DNA of 64,000 nucleotides from Candidatus Marinacidobacterium sp. (lineage in GTDB: Bacteria; Acidobacteriota; Vicinamibacteria; Marinacidobacterales; Marinacidobacteraceae). The stretch lies in assembly GCA_965204755.1 (NCBI GenBank), contig OZ242011.1, forward strand, positions 2,080,001 to 2,144,000, written 5' to 3'. Of this stretch, positions 53,429-56,343 are shown piece after piece (within the stretch, counting starts at the first letter, position 1; each line of letters starts with the position of its first letter). The notes beneath the pieces are model-generated. The model searched no databases, was not told the DNA's origin, and was given only the letters and a program-made list of their open reading frames with translations. Both the position numbers and the translations under genes were made by a program.

Positions 53429-56343
53429 CTACAGCAGCGTCCGCCGCCCGCCCTGCTCCTCCCGCGCCAGCCGCGCAATTTCCGGCCACGACCGCACGAG
53501 GGCGTTGTAGGGCCGCGCATCCGCCGGCCGCTTCTGCCGGTCGCACACGGCGTAGAGCAAGTGCGCAAGCGCCCGCGCCGTCTCGGCTTGCCCGCCGATC
53601 TTCCGCAGCAGTCGCGCGGCGGCCACCTCTCCTTCGGCGTCAAGCACGCGGATCAGGTGATGCACCATCTCCCACACGGTCAAGCGTCGGTCTGTGGCGG
53701 GGTCCCAGTCTTCGGGCAACTCCACCGGCTTGAGCAGCCGTACACGACCTCCGCTCGCGCGAAGGATCCCTGCCTCGACCAACCCTTCGATGCCGATGTT
53801 CTTCGCCTTCGCCAGAATTTCCGCTCCGCCGTAGTCCCCCTCATCGAAGTGGTGCTGAATGAACCAAGCCAACGCCCACCGGGTGTCGCTGTCGAACTCG
53901 GCCTCATGCTCCGAGAGAGTCGCGTCCAAGACTTCGTTGACGACAGCCAGCGCCTCGCCGACGGTCATCTTTTCTCCCGAGGAATAGAGAACCTCGGCGT
54001 AGCGGGTAAAGACCGCCATACCCGGCCCGATGGCGGCTTGGGCCAAGTCAACCGGCGCGATGCCCGCCTTCTGAAGGTCGATAAGGGCCGGAGGCAGTTC
54101 GTGCTCGAGAGCATCACGGAATTCTCGCCATGTCGCGGTCGGCGCGTCTGGCGACCGCCGCCGACAGGCGAGAACGATGCTCGATGCCAAGGCATTTGCT
54201 CCTGCAGCGACCGTGCGGTACGTCTGCTCCGTCCTTAGGGGAAGGGTCCCCGTGATCTGGAACCCAGAACGGATGACAGCGTCCAAGAAAGTAGCCCATC
54301 CTTTGCTCACGATACCGACGCCCTTCTTGGTTTCCGATTGCTTGAAGGCGTAGTAGATCGTCGTGGGAAACGCGGGGTGCGTTCCGTTCGACAACAGAGA
54401 CAACACTTCCTCCATGCCATCCATGAAGAAGATATCCGCCGCCCTTGTATCGCCGTGTCGATACGGAGTTGCCACGAGTTCTTCCAACTTCGGCACAGCA
54501 AGTGTCGCGAATAGATCGGGAAACACTTCGTTCGCAGAACGTCGCAGCCAGACATAGAAGAAATCTGAGATATCCGCATAGCCGATGTTGTTGTAGTAAG
54601 GCGGATCCGTCGAAACGACTCGGCCGGGTTGAAGGCTTACTGTTCGCGCGTCTTGTTGCCAGGCCTCGGCTTTGTTTGGAGGTGGTGTCGGGCCGACAAG
54701 TTTCTTGGCGCAATCAGCGATGAAGTGGATGGCAGGAACAAGGCCGCCGACTGCTACCTCAAGCGGCGCTGTTTCAGCGAAGCCCCATGTCATGGCAATC
54801 GCTTGTTTGCTGAAGAGGTGCATAACCTTCTCATTGCCAGCGAGCCAACTCGTACCTGTATTGCCGAAGTCGGCACATCGATCTACGGCGAGCGCCAGAT
54901 AGACCGATACGGCGTCGGCGTAGGCAGATGGCCCGGTGCCGCCTTCGTGCAATGGGCGCGAATCTACGCCGCCTGTCTCTCTCTCTCTCTCTCTCTCTCT
55001 ACGGACATCGCGTCCTGATGCACCTTTTCGCGGGCCTCACTTACCAAGTCGGAGAAGGTCGTAAGCGCCGTCAACTGCCGCTCCGTGAACAGGTCGGCCC
55101 AAGTGAAGACACCGTAACCACGCCCGCTCACGAGGTTCGTCGTGACCCGGTTCATCGGCTCGTCCGGTCGCCAAGCGGGGGAGGCCATCCGGGCGGTCTC
55201 CTCCTGGTCCGCCGAGGGTGGCAGATAGACCCGCTCCCGGTCGCCCTCGGCCACGATCGCCATCAGACGCGTGCCCATGCGGCCAGCCATACTTTCTGCC
55301 TTGATGAAGTCGGGCGACATCGGCGTGTCCGACATCACGCATTCGAAGCTGGCACCCCGGCCGATTTTAGTACCCGATCTCGCCGAGTCCGGAGGGGAGC
55401 CGATTCGAACCGCGAACCGGTAGTGCCTTCCCTCGATCACAGGCTCCACCCAAGCCTCCTTGCCCTTCTTGGTTGAGAGCATGAAGTTGGAAACGAGTGG
55501 GACCTCGACATCGGCGAACGCCGGATTCGGACTGCGCACCGTTCGCGCCCACAGCCAAGCGATCACCGCCAAGTTCCGATTAATGTAGCGCTCCAAGTCA
55601 GGCCGCTTCCCCGCGATCTGCTGCGTGACTCGCACGTTCGGATAGAGATGCCCGATGCGCCGCTCCGCTTCGTCACGCATCCACTGTCCGTAGAAGCGCA
55701 CATCTTCGGAGAGTCCCATCGTGCCCTTCCAGTCCTTTACCGTGAGCGCGGCCCTACGGGACTCCGGGTTCACCGGCGGACGCCTGGAGAACTTCGGCGG
55801 GATCTCGATCATCGCCTTGTTGATGAGCACCGCTACCGGGTTCAGATCGCTCGCGTGGGCCTCCAGACCGAGGCGCTGCGCTTCCAGCGGAATGGCACCG
55901 CCTCCAGCGAACGGATCGTGGAACACCGGCAATCGCTCTGCGGCGAATAGCTCCGCTGCCCTCGGATGGTCAGCATTGTCCGCGCAGGTCCTCCGCCAAC
56001 TCCTCCGGATCTCTTCCCGCGCCAGATCCAGCAACGCCGTGCTCGTCGTGTTCTCCCACTTCACGAGTTCCCGAAGTATGCCGAACAGCCGTTCCCGCTC
56101 CGCGTCCTGCTCCTCCTTGGTCGGGAACAACTCCGGCCGGGACGACGGATCGTCGACGAGCTGCGCAAACAGCACGGCTCGCGCCGCCGCCAGTGGCTTC
56201 CGGGACCACCACTGGTGCAGTCCACGAGGATGCGGTCCGATCCCAGGCATCTTCTCGTAGGATGCAGCCCGATTGATGTCATCGAGCGGCAACGCCACTT
56301 CGATGAGTTTCCGAACGGTCTTCACTGCGGGATCGCCGCCCAT
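53429..56343 (-). CDS. DUF1156-family amino-DNA methyltransferase, frameshifted in a (GA)12 tract
   Basis: 5' [39 protein letters not shown]; 3' [30 protein letters not shown]; break lies at the repeat. Confidence 0.88.
54976..55000 (-). repeat. Dinucleotide SSR, (AG)12A on the coding strand
   Basis: Direct count of the tctc run, 25 nt. Confidence 0.95.

Follow-up and report, generated by a model that had tools for sequence, protein, structure and literature searches.

A probable repeat-length switch in the DUF1156 methyltransferase gene of an Hma locus from an uncultured, GC-rich acidobacterium

Methylases of Type I, Type III and Type IIG are all known to undergo repeat switching, which for Type I and Type III is textbook material in small-genome pathogens. 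In the phasevarions of Haemophilus, Neisseria, Helicobacter and Streptococcus suis, a simple sequence repeat (SSR) within the open reading frame (ORF) of an N6-adenine methyltransferase, encoded by a Type III mod or a Type I hsdM/hsdS gene, shifts the frame between ON and OFF, and these genes occur as several allelic variants with different recognition domains (PMC5909438, PMC7383803). The phage growth limitation system (Pgl, or type 2 of the bacteriophage exclusion systems, BREX) of Streptomyces coelicolor combines a high-GC host and methylation-based phage defence with a repeat-length switch inside the methyltransferase gene pglX (PMC4365076), for which rates of 1e-2 to 1e-4 have been given (Sumby and Smith 2003, cited in PMC4365076). 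Inversion shufflons of BREX-1 pglX, Type I hsdS and Eco57I-like methylases, in turn, diversify the specificity region of a defence methylase and leave its ends constant (PMC9881135). Here we analyse a 64,000-nucleotide stretch of Candidatus Marinacidobacterium sp. (assembly GCA_965204755.1, contig OZ242011.1, positions 2,080,001 to 2,144,000; hereafter the window), in which the gene of a DUF1156 methyltransferase, hmaB1, is split by a pure (GA)12 tract. We argue that hmaB1 is probably an SSR-switched contingency gene, one of a family of switchable hmaB alleles sharing a single HmaA/HmaC pair.

From its profile matches, the locus is assigned to the catalogued Hma system, which Payne et al. 2021 put forward as a candidate for defence (PMC8565338). 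A later paper renamed it the Type-1 DUF499-centred BREX-related system and interprets HmaB as an N6-adenine methylase resembling the one in BREX type 3 (NAR 2026, PMC12839542). The components of Hma are all present here: the SNF2-family helicase HmaA, which in Hma usually ends in a PD-(D/E)XK-type nuclease domain, the DUF1156 N6-adenine methyltransferase HmaB, with hmaB1 frameshifted at the repeat, and the DUF499 AAA+ ATPase HmaC, in many cases a HEPN fusion; hmaC lies on the same strand as, and adjacent to, the other hma genes. Hma has been reported in 26 phyla, and its methylase is without a demonstrated role. The parts of hmaB1 are the following:

54964 to 56343, minus strand: N-terminal half of hmaB1, with the DUF1156 domain (Pfam PF06634, 1.6e-28) and S-adenosylmethionine (SAM) motif I (DPFAGGG)
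54976 to 54999, minus strand: (GA)12 SSR inside hmaB1, reading (ER)4 in the N-terminal frame
53429 to 54975, minus strand: C-terminal half of hmaB1, in the other frame, with the hypervariable segment, the catalytic DPPY and the C-terminal helical domains

Around the tract the minus strand reads ATG TCC GTA (GA)12 CAG GCG GCG TAG. The upstream frame (54964-56373) comprises 469 residues including DPFAGGG and meets the TAG three codons past the repeat, while the other frame is open from the repeat to a stop at 53429 and contains DPPY. Removal of one GA unit or addition of two, giving (GA)11 or (GA)14, joins the halves into a protein of ~965 amino acids; the gene is otherwise intact, such that a change of one or two units restores its frame. 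Against the 967 positions of the PADLOC HmaB profile PDLC00660, the N half matches positions 4-459 (6.3e-212) and the C half positions 464-956 (1.2e-195). The start was taken as the ATG at 56343, although translation could instead begin at a GTG at 56373 or at an internal GTG that corresponds to where homologs start (VKTVRKLIE). The repeat is long, pure and inside the reading frame, and its unit is not a multiple of three. Tandem Repeats Finder identifies a single dinucleotide array in the window, (TC)12.5 at 54976-55000 with 100% matches, and none of 100 dinucleotide-preserving shuffles of the window yielded any match even with up to two mismatches allowed; the tract is thus beyond chance. 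Indeed, just four GA/CT tracts of at least seven units occur in the whole 3.98-Mb genome. An earlier note on this stretch, made from its letters, had called the repeat exceptional and placed the truncation between DPFAGGG and DPPY, curable by one GA less or two more; it was correct in every detail.

The tract recurs at the same codon of related genes. The genome under study (G000) is one contig of 3,975,858 bp with 71.7% GC and contains three hmaB copies. The second, hmaB2 (G000:2148315-2151232), lies 15 kb from hmaB1, to which its protein is 77% identical in the N half and 61% in the C half, and carries at the homologous codon a 46-nt GA tract, (GA)23 at G000:2149853-2149898, that leaves it out of frame; the third, hmaB3, has no repeat and is intact. 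A single full-score HmaA and a single full-score HmaC are encoded in the genome, both between hmaB2 and hmaB1. A second genome of the genus (G001) has 13 hmaB paralogs, again with a single HmaA/HmaC pair, and six of the 13 bear tracts at this same loop: (GA)39, (GA)27, (GA)42, (CA)10(CT)16, (CT)33 and (CT)39. GA tracts are translated as ER and CT tracts as SL, so that conservation is at the level of the DNA and not of the peptide. We also considered whether hmaB2 might be part of a second complete Hma system, and rejected this because each genome has one full-score HmaA and one full-score HmaC.

Outside the genus the distribution is narrow. Of 28 genomes of the family, two, both of this genus, have a tract after the anchor sequence and the other 26 lack one. 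The pattern GCATCAGGAC followed by a gap of 0-30 and (AG)7, run over 185,579 species genomes, matched the congener alone, at three sites, and a metagenome scan with GCATCAGGAC, the same gap and (AG)7 returned 10 loci, none of them hmaB; the anchor is specific to close relatives, and these scans say nothing about repeats in distant DUF1156 genes. From public protein collections (5.8 billion proteins) we retrieved 264 proteins (P0003-P0266), a biased sample made up of the best 120 of each length class and the members of ten clusters. Many metagenomic hmaB N halves end just past (ER)n or (HT)n(SL)n, and in-frame full-length proteins with repeats occur as well: at least three dipeptide units are present at the loop in 37 of the 264, five being in frame and full-length, 31 truncated after the repeat and one ambiguous.

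Among these proteins close relatives differ in repeat number, and across the gene family both ON and OFF forms are found. P0013 and P0263, 99.8% identical, are both full-length and have (ER)2E and (ER)3E, respectively. Repeat number differs likewise between P0125 and P0244 (98.4% identical), between P0135 and P0253 (99.1%) and between P0128 and P0251 (98.0%), the last two being in two different OFF frames. One 90% cluster of the hmaB2 type contains repeat-less members, an in-frame (ER)5E member (P0259, 962 amino acids) and truncated members.

Nearly all the genes bearing tracts are otherwise intact. In the two genomes all eight repeat-bearing copies are out of frame and all eight repeat-less copies in frame. 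In seven of the eight repeat-bearing copies each half gives one full-length match, and no other stop occurs over ~2.9 kb each; the eighth (L029) no longer has a C half, and a stop interrupts one of the repeat-less copies. The frame correction required differs between copies, being -2/+4 nt in both G000 copies and in L025, and +2/-4 nt in L026 and L037. Downstream of the tract, the ratio of nonsynonymous to synonymous substitution rates (dN/dS) is 0.29-0.39 at dS 0.51-0.70 in three repeat-bearing pairs, that of repeat-less pairs being 0.15-0.31. These values argue that the downstream halves are translated often enough to remain under selection.

The location of the tract within the protein is also of interest. 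Relatives that lack the repeat have a variable loop of 10-14 residues at this site, within the context HxDAI...SRxLRxGGxGPAAYA and often including a single ER; examples are AIAVERAGGVDARPL, from a protein of the hmaB2 type, and ISAERAGGV, from the nearest protein of the hmaB1 type. This suggests, on comparison of the loops, that the tract expanded from a GAGAGA seed. In a model of HmaB3 computed from 107 sequences (predicted local distance difference test score, pLDDT, 70.1), the site falls within a coil, residues 444-460, that has a long helix on either side, with a local pLDDT of 58-67; an earlier model from a 14-sequence alignment had a pLDDT of 46.8 and was unusable. A Foldseek comparison of the HmaB3 model with the PDB gave no match at E <= 0.001, nor did a profile search of PDB sequences give any. 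Flanking the tract (residue 458), the mean pairwise identity of the paralogs drops to 0.25-0.45, at residues 388-417 and 478-563. Trees of the two hmaB halves, built from the paralogs of both genomes, are incongruent. The N halves group by genome, with support of 98/99 each, which indicates concerted evolution or gene conversion; the C halves keep trans-species allele lineages, and the region of the breakpoint coincides with the repeat loop. In the C-half tree, a single clade (88/86) unites the six GA or CA-CT copies from the two species, so that the GA tract appears older than the species split, and the (CT)39 copy stands apart beside a repeat-less copy (90/90), so that a tract arose at least twice.

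Taken together, the explanation we consider likely for hmaB1 is a switch by repeat length. The tract would sit in a variable loop at the surface of the Hma methyltransferase, immediately upstream of the segment that varies most, and slipped-strand mispairing at replication would add or remove GA units there. With 11, 14 or 17 units, and so on, the product would be a full-length enzyme whose loop contains an (ER)n insert, and with any other number a chain that stops three codons past the tract; as assembled, hmaB1 is OFF. The gene belongs to an allele family, of three members here and thirteen in the congener, whose N halves are homogenised within each genome while the C halves stay distinct and about half of whose members carry a dinucleotide tract at the loop. 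If the hmaB1 tract itself switches at a useful rate, ON cells may methylate a distinct motif, and switching could then alter which DNA the Hma system tolerates or attacks, rendering the symbiont population heterogeneous toward phages.

A number of observations speak against this interpretation. The stretch was found, as contigs, in six public runs; one run is labelled a sponge metagenome (78% of sampled words), and the other five have coded labels. A depth-2 contig from another study's run bridges 54909-55151 without a gap and agrees with (GA)12, as does P0255, a protein from another contig that is 99.8% identical to hmaB1 over 448 amino acids and has the same (ER)4QAA* tail. Every sighting of the hmaB1 tract, in the window, in P0255 and in the bridging contig, is thus (GA)12, with no length variation seen, and the run data themselves are four contig sets with the repeat masked, uninformative on its length. 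Contigs of three runs (X4, X5, X1) end on both sides of the tract (window 54966-55008), the repeat being masked in the comparison; arithmetic on record lengths gives the flanking contigs an overlap of 30 nt, consistent with (TC)12. The breaks could stem from branching by length variants, or from masking alone, and offer a weak hint of heterogeneity. No full-length protein retrieved from the public collections is more than 78% identical to the C half of hmaB1, and the 90% clusters may mix paralogs with homogenised N halves, full-length identity having been checked for the named pairs alone. The proportion of ON alleles is also lower than neutral slippage predicts: instead of one third, none of the eight genomic copies is ON, with a probability of (2/3)^8 = 0.04 by our arithmetic, and just five of the 37 public repeat alleles are in frame, albeit in a biased sample. 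This excess of OFF alleles may mean that the ON state is costly. Mismatch repair is represented by both MutS1 and MutL, and any hypermutability must therefore come from tract length alone; a lack of mismatch repair, entertained as a cause of the many tracts in this genome, was rejected on finding the two proteins. Finally, neither the methylation activity of HmaB nor its role in defence has experimental proof, as far as PMC11232893 conveys. The note's proposal of an SSR-switched methylase in a DUF499/SNF2/DUF1156 system gains from recurrent tracts, intact genes, purifying selection and differences between near-identical alleles, and falls short in that no variation in length was seen at the hmaB1 tract itself.

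The experiments reported in PMC11232893 also bear on the consequences of an OFF state. There, HmaA of Halomonas alone protected E. coli against T4, and overexpression of HmaB had no measurable effect; in that account, these are the sole phage-protection data published for Hma. The note's corollary that the OFF state implies an effector inactive without the methylase sits uneasily with this result.

Of the other explanations, leaky expression is the one that survives best, though we think it unlikely. RNA-polymerase or ribosome slippage on the GA or CT tract would yield some full-length HmaB, with the tract setting a low level of enzyme. The excess of OFF alleles (8/8 genomic, 31/37 public) would be harmless if such alleles still gave some enzyme, and mod genes of Mycoplasma bovis are described as having a non-binary output from repeat slippage (2026 preprint, 10.64898/2026.04.01.715767). 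On the other hand, no one programmed shift would serve all copies, given the opposite corrections needed by the G000 copies and L025 and by L026 and L037. Such leakiness is compatible with switching at the DNA level, and both may coexist.

Pseudogenisation, in which the repeat-bearing copies are dead and the tract is a neutrally expanded microsatellite, has a somewhat smaller chance of being right. It would account for the uniform out-of-frame state of the eight genomic copies, the missing C half of L029 and the stop in one repeat-less copy, and the intact, repeat-less hmaB3 elsewhere could make the loss of hmaB1 tolerable. Yet seven of the eight copies have no lesion besides the tract, and the downstream dN/dS is 0.29-0.39 where a value near 1 would be expected. 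Moreover, the tracts are pure and occupy one codon in paralogs that differ at dS 0.5-2, and in-frame, full-length repeat alleles exist.

An assembly or consensus error, with genes that are truly in frame and encode an (ER)n or (SL)n linker of miscalled length, is very improbable. The assembly is a single contig, probably from long reads, and the congener's is described as a metagenome-assembled genome; dinucleotide tracts of up to 85 nt are error-prone, and contigs of three runs break at the tract. Against this, the tail derived from (GA)12 is found also in P0255, the gapless bridging contig comes from another study, and dozens of public alleles, each assembled independently, stop at this very place. 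Random miscalls predict one third of copies in frame, and errors on in-frame genes predict most, whereas the observed figure is 0/8. Least credible of all is a naturally split enzyme whose two polypeptides assemble, the purine-rich tract acting as ribosome-binding sequence for the C half: GA runs do resemble Shine-Dalgarno sequences and public gene callers predict separate C-half proteins of 451-454 amino acids, but CT-type tracts could not act in this way, repeat-less relatives are all single chains, and a search of hmaB1 and hmaB2 for a conserved restart codon or ribosome-binding site found none, the first in-frame starts after the tract (TTG at +27 nt in hmaB1, GTG at +18 nt in hmaB2) being unconserved and too far away.

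There is also a broader, tentative reading, which we think possible and somewhat doubtful. In this genus, three to 13 dispersed hmaB specificity alleles would serve one HmaA/HmaC pair, about half of them gated by a hypermutable tract that also marks the site of crossover between paralogs, and the result would be a combinatorial immune specificity of a BREX-like system, varying at the level of the population. The tract, at the boundary between a homogenised N module and a hypervariable C module, would stochastically pick a specificity, usually none or one. Such an arrangement would be the slippage counterpart of what appear to be recombinase shufflons acting on the same loop in sister genera. 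In other genera of the family, hmaB is found as inverted pairs 3-8 kb apart (L077, L078, L079), with nested inverted repeats that are 94-100% identical, one of which (98% identical) spans the very loop that holds the GA tract in Marinacidobacterium. In the one such locus examined, L077 (G015:C1:433000-446000), the copies are separated by genes for two tyrosine recombinases, beside which is a DUF499 gene. From this layout the sister-genus pairs look like an hmaB inversion shufflon.

The remaining components of the Hma locus lie on the same strand as hmaB1:

56354 to 59080, minus strand: genes embedded between hmaA and hmaB1, namely a 193-residue ORF (56354-56935), a PIN-domain ORF (56945-57484) and a 280-residue ORF (58238-59080)
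59256 to 62831, minus strand: hmaA, SNF2 helicase with a C-terminal NOV_C domain (PD-(D/E)XK-type), matching PDLC00659 over its full length at 1495 bits
62878 to 63999, minus strand: C-terminal part of hmaC, DUF499 ATPase, the gene extending beyond the window

Pfam matches of hmaA are SNF2-rel_dom, Helicase_C and NOV_C. HmaC, in which both HEPN_Swt1 and DUF499 were found, matches positions 4-940 of PDLC00662 with 1053 bits; the Swt1-like HEPN domain is at the N-terminus, which falls outside the window. Embedded genes such as those described here occur in 62.7% of Hma loci (bioRxiv 10.1101/2024.01.29.577857). Directly upstream of hmaB2 and on the same strand is a gene for an IetA-like AAA+ ATPase (PADLOC IetA, 1.7e-142; L001 7249-8700, equal to G000:2151249-2152700, minus strand). 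Near the Hma genes within the window are also an HEC-01A-like ABC ATPase (PADLOC, 4.4e-123; 45437-46627, plus strand) and a PDC-S01 / DUF4143 AAA protein (47377-48567, minus strand). Judged by its gene content, the region around Hma resembles a defence island.

Long repeats are by no means confined to hmaB in this genome. Poly-G/C tracts of 14-34 nt number 37, and there are none of 10-13 nt. Many directly follow start codons or lie at 5' ends or in promoters (loci L051-L076), and the associated genes encode lipoproteins, TonB-dependent receptors, PMT_2 glycosyltransferases, arylsulfotransferase-like paralogs and GDSL hydrolases; further sites are an N6_N4 DNA methylase (G26), genes next to ResIII helicases, and, with a G30 tract, a divergent pair of polysaccharide flippase and UDP-glucose dehydrogenase genes. 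A Type IIG-like methylase (N6_Mtase/Eco57I plus Type_ISP_C) behind a PLD-SNF2 gene is broken into three frames by two tracts:

G000:2720960 to 2721474: G21 and (GA)20 tracts of the Type IIG-like methylase gene (L002 6961-6981 and 7436-7475)

By its domain content, this is a second class of defence methylase with repeats inside the gene. Surface and defence genes associated with repeats are thus many and varied in this organism, as is known from host-adapted bacteria. Three tandem lipoprotein paralogs begin with ATG CGA TTT A followed by C24, C18 or C21 and then a signal peptide with the lipobox LTVGC; two are in the window (2600-2760 and 5583-5700) and the third just upstream of it (G000:2079661), and the C24 copy is out of frame. 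An (AG)8 tract at G000:1263902-1263917 (L003 5903-5918) lies inside an open frame of 716 amino acids that has no Pfam or PADLOC match.

A literature search found no report of a repeat switch for Hma or DUF1156, with the supplements of the Hma and BREX-related papers, which may list frameshifted methylases, outside its scope; the text of PMC12839542 does not mention phase variation, the papers found to name DUF1156 are by their titles on other subjects, none of the listed papers on phase variation names HmaB, DUF499 or DUF1156 as well, and no mention of the genus name Marinacidobacterium was found. The system itself, as distinct from the switch, has been described, being the Hma of PADLOC. The published Hma survey, according to its methods, removed loci with pseudogenes or duplicated hma genes (bioRxiv 10.1101/2024.01.29.577857), and repeat-split and multi-copy hmaB loci would therefore have been excluded. 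More generally, surveys that discard pseudogenes will systematically overlook such loci. The natural occurrence of ON, OFF and repeat-less alleles provides a direct handle on the function of HmaB: such a set would reveal whether HmaA and HmaC need HmaB for their choice of target, and how a cell survives the gain of a new methylation specificity. With ~41 long repeats in surface and defence genes, repeat-based contingency loci are extended to an uncultured acidobacterium of 72% GC, and one bacterial family may be seen to have converged, by two switching mechanisms, on the same loop of the same protein.

How, then, does this locus compare with the systems described above? Relative to the phasevarion mod and hsd genes, the protein is a DUF1156 HmaB, a relative of the BREX type-3 methylase whose partners are a helicase-nuclease and a DUF499 ATPase; the tract is in the middle of the gene, in a loop that separates conserved from hypervariable modules; as many as 13 paralogs, dispersed over the genome, accompany a single effector pair; and the host is uncultured and high in GC, the stretch analysed here recurring in a sponge-metagenome run, rather than a small-genome pathogen. 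Pgl differs in its protein family, in having a homopolymeric G-tract in pglX where a dinucleotide repeat is found here, and in relying on a single pglX instead of an allele family. Its methylase, furthermore, is toxic without PglZ (PMC4365076), nothing comparable being known for Hma. The hmaB inversion in the sister genera matches the BREX-1 pglX shufflons (PMC9881135), whereas the Marinacidobacterium locus has no inverted pairs or recombinases and carries a slippage tract instead. The Hma systems described so far have one intact hmaB; here, hmaB is split by a repeat and present in multiple copies. Within Hma, this locus is unusual in that many paralogs share one effector pair, repeats of different types can take each other's place at a single loop, the tract coincides with a boundary between modules, and the host is an uncultured bacterium of high GC content.

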